Origin: Bacillota bacterium
Lineage (GTDB): Bacteria; Bacillota; Sulfobacillia; UBA995; UBA9673
Assembly (NCBI GenBank): GCA_003599345.1
Contig: QZJP01000009.1
Coordinates: 501 to 64,500, forward strand
Reading direction: 5' to 3'
Length of the DNA: 64,000 nucleotides
Shown here: positions 23,780-31,602 of the stretch, piece by piece
Layout of the letters: each line of letters begins with the position of its first letter
Numbering within the stretch: the first letter of the stretch is position 1
Position numbers and translations under genes: made by a program
The notes under the pieces: model-generated
The model's database searches: none
Seen by the model: the letters and a program-made list of their open reading frames with translations, nothing else
Told to the model about the DNA's origin: nothing

Positions 23780-24730
23780 GTGTATGTCAGGACAACGTCG
23801 GGGGGCCAAGCCTTGCGCTACGTCTACGCCGACATTTTATTTTTCGTTGATTTCTGCTTCGATTTCTCCCTCCTCTACCTCGCGGGGCGGTTCGCTCACG
23901 CTCCGGTGGCGGGCCGGCGCCTCGCGCTCGCCGCTCTTCTCGGCGGACTCCACGGTACGGTCTCGCTGTTCCCCGGCTTTGGGCCAATGGCGACGCCCCC
24001 CATCCAGATACTGGTCTCTGCCCTGATGGTGGCGGTGGCGTACCCGACCGGGGTGAAGGCGTTCCGCCGCTACCTTACCGTCCTGGGCCTCTTCTACCTC
24101 TGCTCCTTCGTAATGGGGGGTGCGGCGATAGGTTGGGCCTACATAACCACGGGCACCACGACCGGGCTGGGGGTGACCCCCGGAACCCTGGGTCCCGGCG
24201 TCGTCCTGCCGGCGGTGGTCTTCGGGGCCACCCTGCTTCACTGGGCCATCGTCAGCGGGCGTGAGCGCGAAAGTGTCGAGGCCCTCCTGGTCTCTTGCCG
24301 GGTTGTCGTCGGTGACCGGCAGGCGGAGTTTCCGGCGCTTGTCGACACGGGCAACCGCCTCCGGGACCCTCTCTCCGACGCTCCGGTGGTGATCGTGGAG
24401 TATCCCGCTCTAGGACTCCTCCTTCCGCCGCAGTTCGGGCCGGTCTGGGAGGCGTCGGTCGACGACGAACCCGATCTTGGGAAGCTTGCGGACGCTCTGG
24501 GAGACAGCGGTTGGTCCTCGAGGCTGCGCCTGGTCCCGTTCTCCTCGATTGGGAAGGCAAGCGGGCTGCTCGTGGGTTTCCGGCCTGACGAACTCCGGAT
24601 CGGCCGCCGCGGGGGTCTGGTACGGACCGCCGACGTGATAGTGTGCGTCTCGCCCCGGCCGCTCTCGGCCGCGGGCGGGTACAGGGCCTTGCTCCCGCCG
24701 GAAGTCCTGCGGGGCGAAGCCGTGGCCTGA
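23780..24730 (+). CDS. spoIIGA: Sigma-E processing aspartic protease SpoIIGA
   Basis: Polytopic N-terminal half (..[22 protein letters not shown]..) and the catalytic ..[22 protein letters not shown].. motif. The start may instead be TTG 23813. Confidence 0.9.
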
Positions 24731-24776: not shown

Positions 24777-25520
24777 GTGAGCTTACAGATAGTGACACCT
24801 TTGCCCGTGAGATTGCGCTGGTCCTTCATCCTCGTCCTCGGCCGTTGGCGCCGCATGCTCGGGTTGGCCGGAGCTCCCCAGTACTACGTCGGGACGAGTG
24901 AAGCCCTGCCTCCCCCGCTGTCATCGGCCGAGGAGGCCTACCTGCTGTCGCGCCTGCAGGCTGGAGACCTGGCCGTCCGCGGCGTTCTCATCGAACGGAA
25001 CCTGCGGCTCGTGGTGTATATCGCCAAGAAGTTCGACAACACCCGGGTGGGTATCGAGGATCTGGTGTCGATAGGGACCATCGGTCTCATCAAGGCGGTC
25101 AACACCTTTGATCCGACGCGGCGCATCAAACTCGCCACCTACGCCTCGAAATGCATCGAGAACGAAATCCTCATGTTCTTGCGGCGTAACCCTCCGCGCT
25201 CCGAGGTATCCTTCGACGAACCGCTGAACGTCGACTGGGACGGCAACGAGCTTCTCCTGTCGGACGTTCTGGGTACGGAGCCCAACGTAACCTACCGGGA
25301 ACTCGAGGAGGAGGTGGACCGCGCCCTTCTGCGAAAGGCGATGACCAGGCTGTCCGACAGGGAGCGGCGCATCATGGAACTCCGGTTCGGACTGGGTGAC
25401 GGGCAGGAGCGGACGCAAAAGGAGGTCGCCGACCACCTGGGGATTTCGCAGTCCTACATCTCTCGGCTTGAGAAGCGTATCATCAGGCGACTGAGACAAG
25501 AAATCGCCAGCATGCAGTGA
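24777..25520 (+). CDS. sigE: Sporulation sigma factor SigE (pro-sigma-E)
   Basis: ..[80 protein letters not shown] is near-identical in pattern to B. subtilis SigE. An N-terminal pro-sequence is present. Confidence 0.95.
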
Positions 25521-25575
25521 GGGCCTAACCGGGACCGGACGGCGCGGGGATACCTGCCCGCGGCGGCGTCCCCTC

Positions 25576-26322
25576 CTACCCGGTCTTCCCGAGGGCCAGG
25601 CCGTAGGCCAGCGCGGAAGTGGGGCACGCCGCGACGCAAGCGGGAGACCCTCCGCACAGGTCGCACACTAGAACCATACCCGTCTCCGGTGAGATACGCA
25701 TGGCCGAGAAGGGGCACGCCTCGACGCACCGCCCGCACCCGTTGCACCGGTGGCTCTCCGCCAATACCGCACGGGTAGTGGGCTCACGCCGAAGTGCCCC
25801 CTCGGGACACACCTCCACGCATCGGGCCGCTCCGCATTGCCTACAGATATCGAGTCTCACCGGGGTCGTTCGATCGTCCGCGGCCACCCACATGCGCGAC
25901 TCCCCGGCCGGAGCGCCCTCGCGGTGAGCTTCCCTGCATGCCCTCTCGCACTTGCCGCACGCGTCGCAGGCCGACACGTCGACGAGGATACGCTTGGGCG
26001 GGAGCGGGACGCCACTAGAAGAGTCGTCCGTCCGTTCTGAGACTGTCCCTCCGGCGGGAATACGCTCGAACCTGAATATCACCTGACCGTTGGGGTCCGG
26101 GCACACCATCCGGTGGGTGTCCGGAACCCAATCGTTGTCCTCCGCCAGCTGCCTCTGCTTGACGGGCACCATGGGCATCAGGCTCTGCAGCGCCCAGATA
26201 CAGAAGTACCGGCCGTCGGGGATGTGGAGTCTTCCGCCCTTCACCTCAATGTAGTCTCCGGGTCTCAGGGGTAGGTCACAGAATCCCCGAATCTCCTCCA
26301 CCACGATTCTCAGGTCGTACAC
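25576..26322 (-). CDS. Fusion protein: TIGR04076-like N-terminal domain + four-cluster 4Fe-4S ferredoxin domain
   Basis: 248 aa. The N-terminus MYDLRIVVEEIRGFCDLPLRPGDYIEV..YFCIWALQSLMPMV..MVCPDPNGQVIFRFERI resembles the small TIGR04076 family. The C-terminus carries four Cys motifs: CDACGKCERAC, CRQCGAARCVEVCP, CNGCGRCVEACP, CDLCGGSPACVAACP. Confidence 0.7.
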   Translation of the reverse strand: MYDLRIVVEEIRGFCDLPLRPGDYIEVKGGRLHIPDGRYFCIWALQSLMPMVPVKQRQLAEDNDWVPDTHRMVCPDPNGQVIFRFERIPAGGTVSERTDDSSSGVPLPPKRILVDVSACDACGKCERACREAHREGAPAGESRMWVAADDRTTPVRLDICRQCGAARCVEVCPEGALRREPTTRAVLAESHRCNGCGRCVEACPFSAMRISPETGMVLVCDLCGGSPACVAACPTSALAYGLALGKTG

Positions 26323-26356
26323 TTGCCCTCAACCTTTCAAGTGACTTGGGTGCTGA

Positions 26357-26373
26357 CTCGCGTGACACGCGAG
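26357..26373. promoter_or_regulatory. Perfect 8-1-8 palindrome in divergent intergenic region
   Basis: CTCGCGTG-A-CACGCGAG at 26357-26373, between the minus-strand Fe-S gene (start 26322) and the ECF sigma gene (start 26458). Confidence 0.4.
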
Positions 26374-26457
26374 ACTCGTGGGGTTCGGCGGGGAGCGCCC
26401 TAGACCTGCCGAATAAACCGAGGGACCCGGACGTTCATCAGTCGGGGAGGTAGAGCG

Positions 26458-27066
26458 GTGACCAGTTCTGACCTAGGCATCCTCTACGCCAGGCATCGCC
26501 GCGGTATCCTGCGGGTAGCCTCGAAGCTTCTCCGAGATCAGGCGGCGGCCGAGGACGTGGTCCAGGAGACCTGGGTGAGGGCGATGCGGTTCTTCGGAAC
26601 CCGCGCCACGGACGGACAGCCTTCCGCGGCCTGGTTCTACCGGGTCGCCCTGAACCTCTGCTATGACCGGCTGAGAGCCCTGGCCAGGGACCGGACGGCG
26701 GTAGCGGAACCGGCCGAACTGGATGGGGGTGAGCTTGCCGAGGCCCACGCGGTGGGGTCCGGCGCTCCGGCGGTCGACCCCGAACAGGAGGTTCTCAGGG
26801 CCGAACTGGCCCGCGCGGTACGCGAGGCCGTCGAGGGCCTCCCGCCCCTCTTGCGGGAGGCGGTCGTGTTGAGGGAGTACGGGGGCCTCAAGTACCGCGA
26901 GATCGCCGAGATCGCATCCTGCCCCGTCGGAACGGTCATGTCCCGCCTCCATCTCGCCAGGCAGCGGTTGAGGCTCGCCCTCGCGCCCTACCTGGAACTC
27001 GATACCGACCCGGCCGGAGAGCAGGCAGATACCGACACAGGGCAAGCCGGCCAGGGGGGAGGATGA
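26458..27066 (+). CDS. ECF (group 4) sigma-70 family RNA polymerase sigma factor
   Basis: 202 aa. Region 2: ..AEDVVQETWVRAMR..FYRVALNLCYDRLR. Region 4: ..LREAVVLREYGGLKYREIAEIASCPVGTVMSRLHLARQRLR. GTG follows SD GGGGAGG. Confidence 0.9.
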   Translation: MTSSDLGILYARHRRGILRVASKLLRDQAAAEDVVQETWVRAMRFFGTRATDGQPSAAWFYRVALNLCYDRLRALARDRTAVAEPAELDGGELAEAHAVGSGAPAVDPEQEVLRAELARAVREAVEGLPPLLREAVVLREYGGLKYREIAEIASCPVGTVMSRLHLARQRLRLALAPYLELDTDPAGEQADTDTGQAGQGGG

Positions 27067-27443
27067 AAGGCGTGAACCAACCACTCGAGCAAAGGCCGGA
27101 TTGCGCTCTTTCCTGCATGGCCGGCCCCTACTACGACGGGGAGTTGACCCCCGAGGAGAGCAGGCGGTTCCTGGAGCACCTCTTCTTCTGCCCGGTCTGC
27201 CGGATGGAGGTCAGGGCGATAAGGCGGCTGTCGGAACTCATCCACTCCGACGGGCGCCCCGGTCCGTGGACGCCCGGGCCCGAGGATGAATGTGAGGCGG
27301 CGGCGGAGTGGGGGGCGGGCCACGAGATGGGCCTGCCTTCCCCCGCAGGGGCAGAGGGGCGCCGCAGGCCGCGACTCAAGCCCCGGCCGGGCACGACTCC
27401 GGCTGTCGGCCTCGCGGGAGGTGGTCGGGGTGTCCGCGGTTAG
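27063..27443 (+). CDS. Zinc-binding anti-sigma factor (ZAS / zf-HC2), apparently soluble
   Basis: 126 aa. ATGA overlap with the sigma gene. Complete motif C-x24-H-x3-C-x2-C (DCALSC..FLEHLFFCPVC). No hydrophobic segment follows. Confidence 0.8.
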   Translation: MKGVNQPLEQRPDCALSCMAGPYYDGELTPEESRRFLEHLFFCPVCRMEVRAIRRLSELIHSDGRPGPWTPGPEDECEAAAEWGAGHEMGLPSPAGAEGRRRPRLKPRPGTTPAVGLAGGGRGVRG

Positions 27444-29067
27444 ATACCGGCCCGAGCCGGGGCCGGAAAGGGCCTTTCGGGAACTCTGGGAGGACATCCG
27501 GGATGTCCTGGTCCGCCCGACCCGTGCCTTCTACCGCATCGTTGAAGGGGGACGTATCATCGCCCCGGTAGTGGCTGCCGGCTTGGTGGGGCTCGTGGGC
27601 TCCGGGTCGCAGACCCTCAAGGTCGCGATTCTCGCGGCTATCGGAGGTGGCTGGAGTAGCCTCTGGCTAGCCAAGTTCGTGCTGGCTTTTCTCCTTCTGT
27701 TCCCGCTCGGCTACGCGGCATGGGTCGCCGCGACAGCCGCGGCCGGAAGGGTCGTGGCGGGCAAGGGACTCGGCCTGGGGTTCCGGCAGCTCTTCCGCCG
27801 CTGCTGGTCGGCGTTAGGCTGGGTTTACTTGCCCCTGCTCGTGACGACGGTCATCGTTCTCGTCTGGGTATCGGTCTTCTCAGGCCCGGGCCTGCGCGAG
27901 GCGTTCAGACTAGGCGACGACAGCCTTACGCCCAGCTTCTTCTTTCCCGTGGCGCTGCCTTTGGGGCTGGCGATCAGCCTCTGGGTGGTCGTGCTCCTCG
28001 TCATCGCCGTCCGCCAGGCCTTGGCCACCGACACGGTCAGGGCCATGGTCGTCATCGCCGTCACCTGCCTGGCCGGCGCCGTACTGGTTCACACGCCGGT
28101 CGCGCGGAGCATAGCCACCGGCTTTGTCGATAGCGAGGGCCTTCTGGGCCGCGGGCGGGCTTCGGTCGTCATCAGCCTGGTCGCCTACACCTGGCCCCGG
28201 GAGAGAGCACCCGAGCGGGGGGACCTCGTGGCCCTGAGGGACCCCGTTCGCGGTTCGGCCGACGTGTTCGTGTTGGACACCCCATTCGGGGTTATCACTC
28301 ACGGCTATAAGGGAGTGCCCATGGCGCGGGTCATCGGCCTGCCGGGGGACAGGGTGGCCGTCGATGCCGGAGTGGTCCTCCTCAACGGAGAAGTTCTGGA
28401 CGAACCGTACCTGCGCGATGTCCCGTCCCACATGGCCCACCCGATGCTTCTCGACGTCGATGAAGTAACCGTCCCTGAAGGGCATGTCTTCGTCCTGCCC
28501 GACGACCGGTCCAAGGCGCTCGCCGGCACGGCACCGCACCACGTAACCCCGCTGGGCCACGTGCTCGGAAGAGTCGTGTCTCTTCAGGTGTCGCCCGGTA
28601 CTGTGGTCATGGAGCTGGGGGGACTCCAGAACCAAGGGGGGCAGGAGGTCACCGGCGGTGTCGTAAAGGTCGATCCCTTGGCGGGAGAGGCCGAACCCGG
28701 GATGTTACCGGCGAGCTGGCAGGCCGTGGCGAGGACTCCCTGGGGAGAGGTCGAGGAGCTTGATACTTGGGAGACCCCCTTTCCTTGGCTGGCCGCTGAC
28801 CCGAGGTCGGGCCTGGTGTTGATCGCGGAGAGACCGCGGGCGTCGCTCTCCGCCGCTGTAGTCGTGCGGCCGTCCGGCGTAGCGAAGCGCCTGTCTAAGC
28901 TTGTGACCGAGCCGCTGGCCTTCTCCGCGGAAGGCGACGGTTTCGCCGTCATGAGCCCCTCGACAGAAGGCGTGTCAGGGTCCTGGCCCGCGACGACTAC
29001 CTGCTGCTGGAAAGCGAAACCTGGGTCGAGGCCTACCTCTACGACCTCATGGCCGCGACTGGTATAG
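27430..29067 (+). CDS. Polytopic membrane protein (Yip1-like N-terminal domain) fused to a degenerate signal-peptidase-I (S26)-like domain; 3' end probably frameshifted to 29078
   Basis: GTG 27430 overlaps the anti-sigma stop. About six hydrophobic helices (27.5-28.1 kb). Then ..ERGDLVALRDP.., ..MARVIGLPGDRVAV..LLNGEVLDEPYL.., ..GHVFVLPDDRS.. align to S26 boxes B-E. However, Lys of the KR(V/I)IGLPGD box is Ala, and the SMxPT and GDNRxxSxDSR boxes are degenerate. Confidence 0.7.
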   Translation: MSAVRYRPEPGPERAFRELWEDIRDVLVRPTRAFYRIVEGGRIIAPVVAAGLVGLVGSGSQTLKVAILAAIGGGWSSLWLAKFVLAFLLLFPLGYAAWVAATAAAGRVVAGKGLGLGFRQLFRRCWSALGWVYLPLLVTTVIVLVWVSVFSGPGLREAFRLGDDSLTPSFFFPVALPLGLAISLWVVVLLVIAVRQALATDTVRAMVVIAVTCLAGAVLVHTPVARSIATGFVDSEGLLGRGRASVVISLVAYTWPRERAPERGDLVALRDPVRGSADVFVLDTPFGVITHGYKGVPMARVIGLPGDRVAVDAGVVLLNGEVLDEPYLRDVPSHMAHPMLLDVDEVTVPEGHVFVLPDDRSKALAGTAPHHVTPLGHVLGRVVSLQVSPGTVVMELGGLQNQGGQEVTGGVVKVDPLAGEAEPGMLPASWQAVARTPWGEVEELDTWETPFPWLAADPRSGLVLIAERPRASLSAAVVVRPSGVAKRLSKLVTEPLAFSAEGDGFAVMSPSTEGVSGSWPATTTCCWKAKPGSRPTSTTSWPRLV

Positions 29068-29082
29068 AGGGGAAGTGACGAG

Positions 29083-29559
29083 ATGGGAGTCGTGACCTTG
29101 TTCTTGATGGCTGTTGCCGATGGAAGCAGTTGGTTCTACAGGTCGACTTGGGGCGGAATCGTCCTGCGGGCGGTCACCTACCTGGTGGTCGTCACCGCCC
29201 TAGTTCTGGCGGTGTGGAGCGTTCTGCCCAGGCTCTTCCCGCCGCGCTGCCCCAAGTGCCGAGGACTGCTCGACAAGGAGAACAAGCGCGTCTACGAGGG
29301 CGAAAAGCGGGACCAAATCATCCTGCCGCCCATAGACCTCATCACTAGCCGGTGCCCGTCTTGCGGCCATGAAACGCGGAGCCTGGTCGCGGACACGGGC
29401 CCGACCTTCTTCGAGCGTGGGCAGAAGACCAGGTGGCCCTTCGGGTGGTCGAATTCACCAGAGGCCGCCAGGGAGACCGCCCGCGCCGTCCTGGAGTGGG
29501 ATCGGACCATGGAGCGCTTGAAGCGAGAATTCGACGCGCAGGATAGAAGGCGCGCCTAG
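29083..29559 (+). CDS. Membrane-anchored zinc-ribbon protein (hypothetical)
   Basis: 158 aa. Two N-terminal hydrophobic helices, then the CPKC..(33 aa)..CPSC pairs and a charged C-terminal helix. ATG follows SD GAGGGGAAG. Confidence 0.65.
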   Translation: MGVVTLFLMAVADGSSWFYRSTWGGIVLRAVTYLVVVTALVLAVWSVLPRLFPPRCPKCRGLLDKENKRVYEGEKRDQIILPPIDLITSRCPSCGHETRSLVADTGPTFFERGQKTRWPFGWSNSPEAARETARAVLEWDRTMERLKREFDAQDRRRA

Positions 29560-29562
29560 TCG

Positions 29563-29607
29563 ACAGGCACCGCCCCCGGTTTGCCGCGCGGTGCCTGTTT
29601 CTTTCTT
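29563..29607 (+). terminator. Rho-independent terminator closing the accessory block
   Basis: ACAGGCACCGC (29563-29573) pairs with GCGGTGCCTGT (29588-29598), followed by TTCTTTCTT. Confidence 0.8.
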
Positions 29608-29640
29608 AAGTTCTCCCGGCCGAGCCGGGTAGCGGCCTCG

Positions 29641-29671
29641 GAATAAACCCCCGCCCCGCGTGGGCAGAATC
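29641..29671 (+). promoter_or_regulatory. Candidate forespore (sigma-F/G type) promoter of sigG
   Basis: GAATA (29641-29645), 16 nt, GGGCAGAATC (29662-29671). Compare the published sigma-F pattern GYATA-N15-GGnnAnAHTR. One or two mismatches, and the spacing is off by about 1. Confidence 0.4.
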
Positions 29672-29723
29672 ACCCCTAGTCCCACACAGGCAATAAATGG
29701 GAGTGGGCAGGGGGAACTGGCAC

Positions 29724-30497
29724 GTGCTCGTCAACAAAGTCGAGATTTGCGGCGTTAACACGTCCAAGCTCCCAGTCCTGTCAGCCCCCAAGATGCGCGA
29801 GCTCTTCGTGCGCATGCAGAACGGCGAGACTTCCGCAAGAGAGCAACTCATCCACGGCAACCTCCGCCTCGTCCTGAGCGTGATCCAGAGGTTCAACAAC
29901 CGCGGCGAGTACGTGGACGACCTCTTCCAGGTCGGGTGCATAGGCCTCATCAAGGCCATCGACAACTTCGACCTCGGCCAGAACGTCAAGTTTTCAACCT
30001 ACGCCGTGCCGATGATCATCGGCGAGATAAGGCGCTACCTGCGCGACAACAACGCCATCAGGGTGAGCCGTTCACTCCGCGACATCGCCTACAAGGCCCT
30101 CCAGGTCAGGGACGGTCTTGTGAACAAGCATGCCCGCGAGCCCTCCATCAACGAGATAGCCGACGAGCTTAAGTTGCCCCGGGAGGACATCGTTTTCGCG
30201 CTGGACGCCATCCAGGAACCGATATCGCTGTTCGACCCCGTATATCACGACGGGGGCGACCCCATCTACGTCATGGACCAGATCGGCGACGAGAAGAACC
30301 ACGACTCGACCTGGCTCGAAGGCATTTCCATCCGGGAGGCGATGAGCAAGCTCTCCGAGCGGGAGCGCCTCATCCTGTCCCTTCGGTTCTACCAGGGAAA
30401 GACCCAGATGGAGGTCGCCGAAGAGATAGGTATCTCCCAGGCGCAGGTCTCGAGGCTCGAGAAAGCCGCTTTAGGCCACATGAGGAAGCTCATGTGA
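29724..30497 (+). CDS. sigG: Sporulation sigma factor SigG
   Basis: ..NKVEICGVNTSKLPVL..GNLRLVLSVIQRFNNRGEYVDDLFQVGCIGLIKAIDNFDL..VKFSTYAVPMIIGEIRRYLRDNNAIRVSRSLRD is almost collinear with B. subtilis SigG. GTG 29724 follows AGGGGGA. Confidence 0.95.
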   Translation: MLVNKVEICGVNTSKLPVLSAPKMRELFVRMQNGETSAREQLIHGNLRLVLSVIQRFNNRGEYVDDLFQVGCIGLIKAIDNFDLGQNVKFSTYAVPMIIGEIRRYLRDNNAIRVSRSLRDIAYKALQVRDGLVNKHAREPSINEIADELKLPREDIVFALDAIQEPISLFDPVYHDGGDPIYVMDQIGDEKNHDSTWLEGISIREAMSKLSERERLILSLRFYQGKTQMEVAEEIGISQAQVSRLEKAALGHMRKLM

Positions 30498-30531
30498 CCT
30501 CGTCCTTCCTCCGCTGCCCTCACTTACCGGC

Positions 30532-31602
30532 ATGCGGAACCTATTGCGGGGCAGACTAAGTAGCCATTTCACCACCGGTGAGGTGAGTTCCGGTGGGTTT
30601 GGAGTGACCACGGTGAGACCTGTCATCGAAGTCGAGAGGCGAGGCCGCGACCCCGGCTCCGGTAAAGCGAAAACGACCCCGGCCCGGCGGACGTTCGGCC
30701 GCGCGCTGTTGGGCCTGCTTGTCGCGTTTATCGGGTTGGCGGCCGCGGCGGGCTGGTACCTGCGCGCCGACCTGGCCTACGACACCAGTAACCTCATCCG
30801 GCTCCACGTCGTGGCGAACAGCGACACGCCGACAGACCAGGAGGTCAAGCTCGCCGTCCGCGACGCCATTCTGAAAGCGTCCGGGGAGTTGTTCACGTCC
30901 ACGCCGCCGGAAAACGCCGTCGAAGTGGTCACGGCCAACCTCCCGCTGTTCCAGCGCGTGGCCGAGAACGTCCTCAGGGCCAACGGCTACGACTACCCGG
31001 TCGGCGTGGAATTCGGCACCTTCTCCTTCCCGGAGAGAGCCTACGGTCCCCTCATGCTACCGGCGGGACAATATCAGGCGGTGAGAGTGGTCCTCGGCGA
31101 GGGGGAGGGAGCCAACTGGTGGTGCATTCTGTTCCCGCCCCTGTGCTACCTTGACGTGGTGGGCGGGAACCGGGAAACGGTGTGGGGCATCACGCCGTCA
31201 GGCAGCCTCGCCGGAGCTTCGGGGGCGCCCCTGGCTGACGGCGGGAGCCGCGTCCTGCCTTTGACCTCGCTCACCGAGGCTCAGCTAAGGGACCTTGAGG
31301 TCATCCTCAGCCGGGCTCTCGACAGCCTGGACAACGACACCCGCGCGGCCGGCGCCGGCCTGTCTGAAACGGACTTGGCCGCCATCGGCGACGGGCAACT
31401 CAGGGTCATAATCACGGATGTCCCGACTGACGACGATAGCGGCCTCGTCATACTCGTGGCCGACACCGGCGAAGACAAGACCGAGGTCCGGTTCTACGTC
31501 CTCGACAGGCTCCGGGATCTTTTCACTTCCCTGGCCGAGTGGGCGCCGTGGCTCGTGGGCGCCGCGGGCACCACGCCGGCGCACGTTCCGCCTCAGCGCT
31601 AG
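30532..31602 (+). CDS. spoIIR: Stage II sporulation protein R (SpoIIR), with long internal/C-terminal extension
   Basis: ..IRLHVVANSDTPTDQEVKLAVRDAILK.. and ..VLGEGEGANWWCILFPPLCYLD.. signatures. 356 aa from the longest start (a GTG near 30613 is possible), versus ~220 aa typical. Confidence 0.85.
   Translation: MRNLLRGRLSSHFTTGEVSSGGFGVTTVRPVIEVERRGRDPGSGKAKTTPARRTFGRALLGLLVAFIGLAAAAGWYLRADLAYDTSNLIRLHVVANSDTPTDQEVKLAVRDAILKASGELFTSTPPENAVEVVTANLPLFQRVAENVLRANGYDYPVGVEFGTFSFPERAYGPLMLPAGQYQAVRVVLGEGEGANWWCILFPPLCYLDVVGGNRETVWGITPSGSLAGASGAPLADGGSRVLPLTSLTEAQLRDLEVILSRALDSLDNDTRAAGAGLSETDLAAIGDGQLRVIITDVPTDDDSGLVILVADTGEDKTEVRFYVLDRLRDLFTSLAEWAPWLVGAAGTTPAHVPPQR

Follow-up and report, generated by a model that had tools for sequence, protein, structure and literature searches.

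Increasingly, pseudo-enzymes emerge as proteins that have been turned into receptors or scaffolds; the iRhoms, the germinant sensor CspC and SipA are examples. The last of these, from Streptococcus pyogenes, has the fold of a type I signal peptidase (SPase), carries Asp48 and Gly85 at the positions of Ser90 and Lys145, and keeps a peptide-binding cleft while showing no peptidase activity; its function in pilus polymerisation survives mutation of the Asp (PMC4049620). In other Bacillota, signal peptidase is reported to be the site-1 protease for RsiV and RsiP (PMC8844934, PMC4183432). Here we describe a gene, located in a 64,000-nucleotide stretch of contig QZJP01000009.1 (hereafter the window), whose product joins a Yip1 membrane domain to a signal-peptidase-like (S26-like) domain and which follows the genes for an extracytoplasmic function (ECF) sigma factor and a zinc-binding anti-sigma (ZAS) factor. 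The host is an uncultured groundwater spore-former of the Bacillota. We refer to the protein and its family as Yip1-S26L; residue numbers are those of the 545-aa product, to which three must be added for the numbering of the database protein, P0002.

To our knowledge, SipA is the only characterised dead signal peptidase, and we know of no ligand for it. Yip1-S26L resembles SipA/LepA (PDB 4n31, 4k8w) in the S26 fold, the Ser-to-Asp and Lys-to-Gly exchanges of its family, and a membrane anchor with the domain predicted outside. SipA, however, has a single transmembrane (TM) anchor and belongs to a sortase/pilin locus with no sigma link, whereas the neighbours of the Yip1-S26L family are sigma factor, anti-sigma and sporulation genes. 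With the active SPases (SpsB, 4wvg-4wvj; Bacillus anthracis, 4nv4; Enterococcus faecalis, 4me8; LepB, 9nlo) the protein shares the fold, boxes C to E and the outside location of the domain; those enzymes have the Ser/Lys dyad, the GDNR motif and one or two anchors, in contrast to the five Yip1-type TM helices and extra C-terminal region found here. As in the RsiV/sigmaV and RsiP/sigmaP systems, a signal-peptidase fold would be linked to ECF sigma activation in Bacillota, but there an active housekeeping SPase cuts a membrane-spanning anti-sigma factor, whereas the window encodes a predicted dead, operon-borne peptidase-like protein and an anti-sigma factor with no membrane or outside part. The latter is short and TM-less and has an HxxxCxxC zinc site, as do soluble ZAS proteins of the RsrA type. 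We know of no co-inherited, translationally coupled polytopic membrane partner in RsrA systems, and papers describing this architecture were absent from literature searches that paired Yip1 with signal peptidase, anti-sigma or ECF.

Fold and active-site positions of the signal-peptidase-like domain

Both parts of the protein are recognised by domain models. Pfam Yip1 (PF04893) matches residues 25-219 with 35.9 bits (cut-off 28.6, E = 8.6e-9) and Pfam Peptidase_S26 (PF10502) residues 188-362 with 52.9 bits (cut-off 22.9, E = 5.7e-14); the NCBIfam model for signal peptidase I is barely passed, with 48.9 bits against a cut-off of 47. Since the two Pfam models, which an original prediction made from the sequence letters had named as a check, exceed their cut-offs and the NCBIfam model just passes, the two-domain architecture is genuine, its scores lying well beyond what chance would give. 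In an AlphaFold2 model built on 93 sequences, confidence is high for residues 1-390 (predicted local distance difference test, pLDDT, mostly 80-97) and poor beyond. Residues 228-386 of this model superpose on Staphylococcus aureus SpsB (4wvi) with a VIA-align Z of 13.6 and a root-mean-square deviation of 2.7 Å over 130 residues, and on Escherichia coli LepB (9nlo) with a Z of 11.8 (Foldseek match, E = 5e-7). The superposition on LepB or another SPase, also proposed as a check, thus bore out the fold; the dyad positions come from sequence alignments.

Boxes C, D and E align with the S26 boxes as had been claimed, reading RGDLVAL, MARVIGLPGD and VFVLPDDRS, respectively; relative to active SPases, about 20 residues are inserted between boxes C and D. 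In a phmmer search against solved structures, MARVIGLPGD was paired with VKRIIGLPGD from the enzymes of B. anthracis and S. aureus, which places Ala299 at the general-base Lys. The replacement of this Lys by Ala had been predicted, and the ten members of the family have, at this position, A G G G V G G G G G, that is, Gly in eight, Val in one and Ala in the window protein. The expected reduction of GDNRxxSxDSR to PDDRS was found as well: box E continues as PDDRSKALAG, with the D and R alone kept.

The nucleophile position differed from the original prediction, which had read the Ser box as SLVAYTW with the Ser possibly retained. SLVAY corresponds to the 'v.v.klsY' strand just before box C (RGD), and the column of the claimed Ser holds Ser, Asn or Asp. 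When the family profile was compared with 33 ordinary SPases by hhalign (probability 99.7, E = 1.9e-25), SM.PTL fell on FVDSEGLL, a segment that the last TM helix and the first beta strand immediately precede. The same placement was obtained in per-sequence alignments to a hidden Markov model (HMM) of those SPases and, again, in a MAFFT alignment with other Yip1-S26 proteins. Because the three alignments coincide, we assign the nucleophile position to Asp234, which is invariant.

Across the ten family sequences, not one position of the S26-like domain holds a Ser, Lys, His, Cys or Thr that eight or more of them share, and near Ala299 their alignment has no conserved Lys, nor a conserved His such as serves in ER-type enzymes; Lys294, five residues before Ala299, is present in the window protein and not conserved in the family. 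Collectively, the alignments and the model show a genuine S26 fold without the Ser/Lys dyad, and hence a predicted pseudo-peptidase. With Asp234 invariant, Gly at the Lys position in eight of the ten and the fold kept, the family has the SipA type of dyad replacement. Its profile matches SipA/LepA at E = 0.03-0.05, more weakly than it matches an active Bacillus SPase (6e-10), and for this reason the Asp/Gly pattern is probably convergent with SipA, not inherited.

A hydrolase with a non-canonical site around the invariant Asp234, Asp358 and Arg300 might be envisaged, given that these residues and Arg360 are invariant or nearly so and that the window protein has Lys294 close to Ala299. Arg300 and Asp358, however, match scaffold residues present in all SPases, the domain has no conserved candidate among the five residue types above, and Lys294 is not kept by the relatives. 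SipA, with its Asp and Gly, has no peptidase activity and is indifferent to mutation of the Asp (PMC4049620). We consider residual hydrolase activity extremely improbable.

Hydropathy places TM segments at about residues 40-60, 78-106, 125-151, 168-194 and 202-222, and the model contains five long helices (pLDDT 82-96). The Yip1-type polytopic domain of the original prediction was thus recovered, with five TM helices in place of about six. Most relatives match Pfam Yip1, some below the cut-off. Clusters of basic residues are found at the N-terminus and within loops 2 and 4, i.e. on alternate sides; five TM segments and positive-inside charges put the N-terminus in and the C-terminus with the S26-like domain out. 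On this model we infer that the domain lies outside the membrane, as in real SPases.

A polytopic anchor on such a domain, which had been regarded as unusual, proved not to be so. Yip1-S26 fusions with intact boxes exist in Acidobacteriota and Pseudomonadota, where the ESM Atlas holds three Yip1 plus Peptidase_S26 clusters of 87-189 members; in the AlphaFold DB, a 359-aa 'signal peptidase I' matches residues 22-391. The fusions of other phyla, annotated 'signal peptidase I', have the same two domains and a similar core length, at about 20-29% identity to the window protein. Eight of them, P0164-P0171, keep SM.PTL, KR and GDNRDNSxDSR (GDNRxxSxDSR), and because of these boxes they are probably active. 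No sigma factor or anti-sigma neighbours were seen in the three loci of such fusions that were read, one of them from the P0064 group described below. The Yip1 anchor is therefore not new; the loss of the dyad and the recruitment into an ECF operon are what is particular here.

Table 1. Positions of the Yip1-S26L gene, its parts and its neighbours in the window
Feature	Position	Strand	Basis or remarks
Yip1-S26L gene	27430..29067	+	545 aa; GTG 27430 start, TAG 29065-29067 stop, frame uninterrupted
Yip1 domain, five TM helices	27502..28086	+	Pfam, hydropathy, charge distribution, model
Predicted S26-fold ectodomain without catalytic residues	28111..28587	+	VIA-align, hhalign, pLDDT mostly 80-97
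Asp234 (GAT) at nucleophile Ser position	28129..28131	+	three alignments agree; invariant in 10/10
Ala299 (GCG) at general-base Lys position	28324..28326	+	phmmer, hhalign and HMM alignments
PDDR replacing box E GDNR	28498..28509	+	P and first D invariant in family
Variable C-terminal region	28597..29064	+	residues 390-545, ~155 aa, pLDDT <60
Alternative frame VLARDDYLLLESETWVEAYLYDLMAATGIEGK	28980..29078	+	high GC3; ORF list
Promoter-like motif, ECF type, GAATAA-N10-CCGGACGT	26411..26434	+	~25 nt upstream of ECF start codon
ECF sigma factor, 202 aa	26458..27066	+	Pfam Sigma70_r2, r4_2, Sigma70_ECF; NCBIfam sigma70-ECF 90 bits
ZAS anti-sigma factor, 126 aa, TM-less	27063..27443	+	Pfam zf-HC2, E 4.8e-8
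Membrane-anchored Zn-ribbon protein (P0155)	29083..29559	+	TM 22-51, CPxC...CxxC ribbon, C-terminal helix; predicted cytoplasmic domain
spoIIGA	23780-24730		
sigE	24777-25520		
Ferredoxin-like gene	25576-26322	-	
sigG	29697-30497		
spoIIR	30532-31602		

GC3, GC content at third codon positions; ORF, open reading frame.

A third, translationally coupled gene of an ECF sigma factor operon

The GTG start of the Yip1-S26L gene is preceded at 8 nt by the ribosome-binding site (RBS) GGGAGG and overlaps the end of the anti-sigma gene by 14 nt; the database gene call P0002 starts three codons further 5', at GTG 27421, and gives 548 aa. Upstream, the stop of the ECF sigma gene overlaps the anti-sigma start. 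The window anti-sigma factor has a C-x24-H-x3-C-x2-C zinc site and a tail rich in Pro, Ala and Arg, and scores 14.6 bits with the NCBIfam RsrA model, far below its cut-off of 62.5. Six orthologs, of 113-129 aa, have in common an N-terminal region of about 75 aa with the C...HxxxCxxC site; no hydrophobic segment or TM helix was found in any of the six, and their divergent Pro/Ala/Arg-rich tails overlap the next gene by 11-17 nt. Sigma factor, anti-sigma factor and Yip1-S26L are adjacent in all six readable loci. We conclude that Yip1-S26L is encoded by the third, translationally coupled gene of an operon for an ECF sigma factor and a TM-less zinc anti-sigma factor.

The possibility that anti-sigma factor and membrane protein are one frameshifted gene was rejected: the two are separate and in different frames in six of six loci, and no Yip1-S26L family member carries a zf-HC2 domain. 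With its anti-sigma domain on a separate polypeptide throughout, the system is not of the membrane-spanning class I.

The tie to the adjacent anti-sigma factor, suggested by the original prediction, was strengthened by comparison of genomes. Anti-sigma orthologs (E <1e-17) occur only in the three relatives that carry the fusion; in 27 other genomes of the class none was found, only weak generic zf-HC2 matches. Among 60 relatives, the window's GTDB family is the only one of the class with the fusion, which is present there in three of four further species; of 401 genomes sampled evenly across the phylum, the window's genome alone had it. These data show that, in a single uncultured Bacillota family, the trio is retained or lost whole.

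The only additional matches in the 401-genome sample, from the family f104, were rejected as possible members, as they are ordinary active SPases (GASMEPTL, YIKR, GDNRNNSDDSR). These f104 enzymes (L149-L155) have long acidic N-terminal extensions and an insertion of about 25 residues between boxes C and D, which sits at the same place as the insertion in the window's S26-like domain. A contig search with the pattern RV[IVA]GLPGD[TR]V, which also fits ordinary SPases, returned ordinary signal peptidases only and no new family members.

The operon lies in a sporulation gene cluster. In GCA_041890195.1 the order is ftsA-ftsZ-spoIIGA-sigE-ECF-anti-sigma-Yip1-S26L-sigG-spoIIR, and in fusion-free genomes of the same family (G001) and the same order (G005 and G007) sigE is followed directly by sigG. 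Because sigE and sigG are contiguous in the latter, the block at 25576-29559 of the window is an insertion. In relatives without the block (L141, L142 and L143), spoIIGA-sigE-sigG-spoIIR are contiguous. The ferredoxin-like gene of the window's block is not in the otherwise syntenic locus L003.

The Zn-ribbon neighbour of the original prediction is the gene directly downstream. Homologs of its product exist only as C-terminal fusions to the Yip1-S26L proteins P0011, P0013 and P0024, which constitutes a Rosetta-stone link between the two proteins; in these fusions the S26-like domain would be outside, followed by a TM helix and the ribbon inside, consistent with the predicted orientation. Conserved motifs are VYEGE.RD.I.LP, FFERG.KT.WP and RAVLEWD, and a long C-terminal helix is seen in the model. 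No Pfam family matches this protein, and a fold search with its model (pLDDT 69) gave no match at E <0.3, only the generic zinc ribbons of NrdR and ZPR1.

Candidate roles of the operon's membrane proteins

Our preferred proposal, which the data leave evenly balanced in our judgement, is that Yip1-S26L is a binding module which, together with the anti-sigma factor, would form a split membrane anti-sigma of an ECF switch, as judged from sequence. In what remains of its substrate cleft, the S26-like domain would bind, without cutting it, a peptide or protein segment, as in SipA. The Yip1 bundle, with the Zn-ribbon protein where present, would provide the membrane part and cytoplasmic face that the TM-less anti-sigma factor lacks, and ligand binding outside would change the hold of the anti-sigma factor on the sigma factor inside. 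The variable C-terminal ectodomains (none, DUF4932-like with HExxH, beta-rich, or TM helix plus Zn ribbon) may tune what is sensed. A more specific form of the proposal, which we regard as unlikely, has a dead SPase acting as receptor for a signal-peptide-like cleavage region, with relay through the Yip1 bundle and the Zn-ribbon protein to the zinc anti-sigma factor; candidate ligands would be unprocessed preproteins, through which stress in secretion or processing would be read out directly, or a signalling protein that is made in sporulation and secreted. Of the originally predicted pseudo-protease module tied to an anti-sigma factor, the lost dyad, the Yip1 anchor and the comparative link have thus held up, and the sensing or binding role is what we propose here.

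If this more specific form is true, it would provide the first function for a bacterial Yip1 domain. The reappearance of an Asp/Gly cleft in another lineage and in an ECF setting suggests that the cleft is no accident but a peptide-binding device open to reuse. The module bears on how outside information could reach a TM-less anti-sigma factor, on the role of Yip1 in bacteria and on the ligand of a dead cleft; it is compact, self-contained and, with three or four genes, movable into model Bacillota.

Several points weigh against this proposal. The Asp234 assignment comes from three sequence alignments in a region of low local confidence, Lys294 is close to Ala299 in the window protein, though not conserved, and the 3' end of the window copy is frameshifted in the population (see below). 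The architecture itself does not imply signalling, since intact fusions exist elsewhere without sigma neighbours. The closest precedent in function, SipA, serves as an assembly chaperone and not as a sensor (PMC4049620). The anti-sigma factor, with its complete RsrA-like ZAS site, could sense cytoplasmic redox alone, in which case the membrane protein would be output, not input. That the operon's own products are the output also fits with the single exact genomic copy of its promoter motif.

This motif, GAATAA-N10-CCG(G/A)(A/C)CGT, has an ECF-like geometry and precedes the ECF gene at a constant distance in the window and in L003 and L009. A regulon search of the 2.3-Mb genome with GAATAA-N10-CCGRMCGT found one exact site, the operon's own, and sites with one mismatch were no commoner than in the control. 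A scan of 25400-30600 for promoters and terminators yielded nothing above shuffled expectation.

In an alternative, the ZAS factor would sense a cytoplasmic thiol or redox signal like RsrA and the sigma factor would activate its own operon, with Yip1-S26L and the Zn-ribbon protein serving as a SipA-like non-catalytic chaperone or scaffold for exported or envelope components, perhaps in sporulation. The complete C...HxxxCxxC site and absence of a TM helix in six anti-sigma orthologs, the operon's motif as the only exact copy in the genome, and the position of the block within the spoIIGA-sigE-sigG-spoIIR cluster are consistent with it. So are the HExxH-containing DUF4932-like C-terminal domain, which looks enzymatic rather than sensory, and the role of SipA, which carries the same Asp/Gly exchanges, as an assembly factor. 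On the other hand, with only three sequences behind the motif and a genome that is 82% complete, other targets may be missed; strict co-inheritance and translational coupling with an anti-sigma factor are more typical of regulators than of targets, and a cytoplasmic Zn ribbon fused after an extra TM helix suggests a message to the cytoplasm. We consider this main alternative somewhat unlikely.

One copy of the motif with a single mismatch, GAATAA-N10-GCGGAACGT (C36:10454-10477; L106:955-978), lies just upstream of an NfeD/SPFH (Band 7) gene pair. Since one-mismatch sites are no commoner than control, it cannot be claimed as a target and may be due to chance.

A third role would be that of a decoy or regulator of real signal peptidase, in which the dead cleft would compete for signal-peptide cleavage regions or bind the active enzyme and so tune how certain exported proteins are processed. 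Boxes C to E keep their scaffold motifs, and organisms of the same family have an unusual SPase paralog whose nucleophile position holds Cys. Signal peptidase is reported to act as site-1 protease on RsiV and RsiP (PMC8844934, PMC4183432), and SpbR is reported to inhibit SPase directly (PMC12260438). However, the anti-sigma factor of the window has no extracytoplasmic part for a signal peptidase to cut, and the Cys paralog is also found in G001, a genome without the module. A decoy function is, in our estimate, improbable.

Family, variable C-terminal regions and 3' end of the gene

In an exhaustive HMMER search, only eight proteins among 1.84 billion representatives reached E <1e-30, the query included, and a word-indexed search returned three relatives. 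The ten family sequences are 34-44% identical, with a well-conserved TM domain and the core motifs LVHTP, D-x4-LGRG, AY, GDLVA, GRVIGLPGD and VLPDDRS. That motifs and TM domain are kept at such a level of identity argues for a functional protein, not a decaying one. The family is small and confined to uncultured groundwater and related Bacillota.

The extra C-terminal region of about 160 aa noted in the original prediction exists, although it is poorly modelled. It shares homology with P0003, P0007 and P0008 over the first ~100 aa of their long C-terminal domains (BLASTP, E = 7e-7 for P0003 and 4e-5 for P0007). Relatives differ strongly in this part: P0006, P0009 and P0012 end after the S26-like domain, P0003 and P0007 have a beta-rich C-terminal domain of about 500 aa, and P0011, P0013 and P0024 have a sixth TM helix and the Zn ribbon at the C-terminus. 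In P0004 and P0010 (L003:10001-12226), a DUF4932-like region at residues ~600-710, below the Pfam cut-off, contains HEFCH (HExxH) and is possibly a zinc peptidase-like ectodomain.

GC3 favours the Yip1-S26L frame up to about 28960 and thereafter the VLARDDYLLLESETWVEAYLYDLMAATGIEGK frame, which ends at TGA 29076-29078, within the Shine-Dalgarno region of the next gene. The end coordinate of 29078 given for the gene by the original prediction therefore belongs to this other frame, and the Yip1-S26L frame stops 11 nt before it. The ancestral gene probably had its 3' end in the VLARDDYLLLESETWVEAYLYDLMAATGIEGK frame, which is now out of frame. Four of four run-level groundwater metagenome assemblies from one study had the same sequence with no indel; three of the four had G>A at 29061. 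Because the separately assembled runs agree, the change is in the DNA of the population, and an assembly error of the metagenome-assembled genome was ruled out.

These results bear on the suspicion that the window holds a decaying gene copy without function, to which the position of the last ~30 codons outside the GC3-favoured frame and the frameshift in all four assemblies would lend themselves. The open frame is nevertheless intact over 545 codons behind a good RBS, and the Yip1 and S26-like parts are strongly conserved across the ten sequences. The frame change affects the last ~30 residues alone, in the tail of a region that is variable or, in P0006, P0009 and P0012, absent. Decay of the gene is thus very unlikely.

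Three further observations were made on S26 proteins outside the family. P0015, on a contig of 1.1 kb, is a match to S26 that has no Lys. The P0064 group (P0064 and P0157-P0163; e.g. L107:5001-6149) comes from other phyla and has Ala or Gly for the Ser (PN[DE]AMLPTL) and the Lys box kept; judged by these motifs, it is a second, independent type of probably inactive Yip1-S26 protein. Finally, the only ordinary SPase I found in the window's own, 82% complete genome (C51:9251-9814; L001:1471-2037, minus strand) lies in a trmD-rplS-lepB-ylqF locus and reads DGACMEPLL for G.SM.PTL, with Cys at the nucleophile position and an intact Lys box and GDNRPESEDSR. The Cys is common to the SPase orthologs of all four other species of the GTDB family (SCMEP or SCMRP; L112-L115), three of which have a tandem SPase paralog with the usual Ser, and the residue is Ser in all 26 other genomes of the class. 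By its motifs, the enzyme looks like a natural Cys-Lys signal peptidase.

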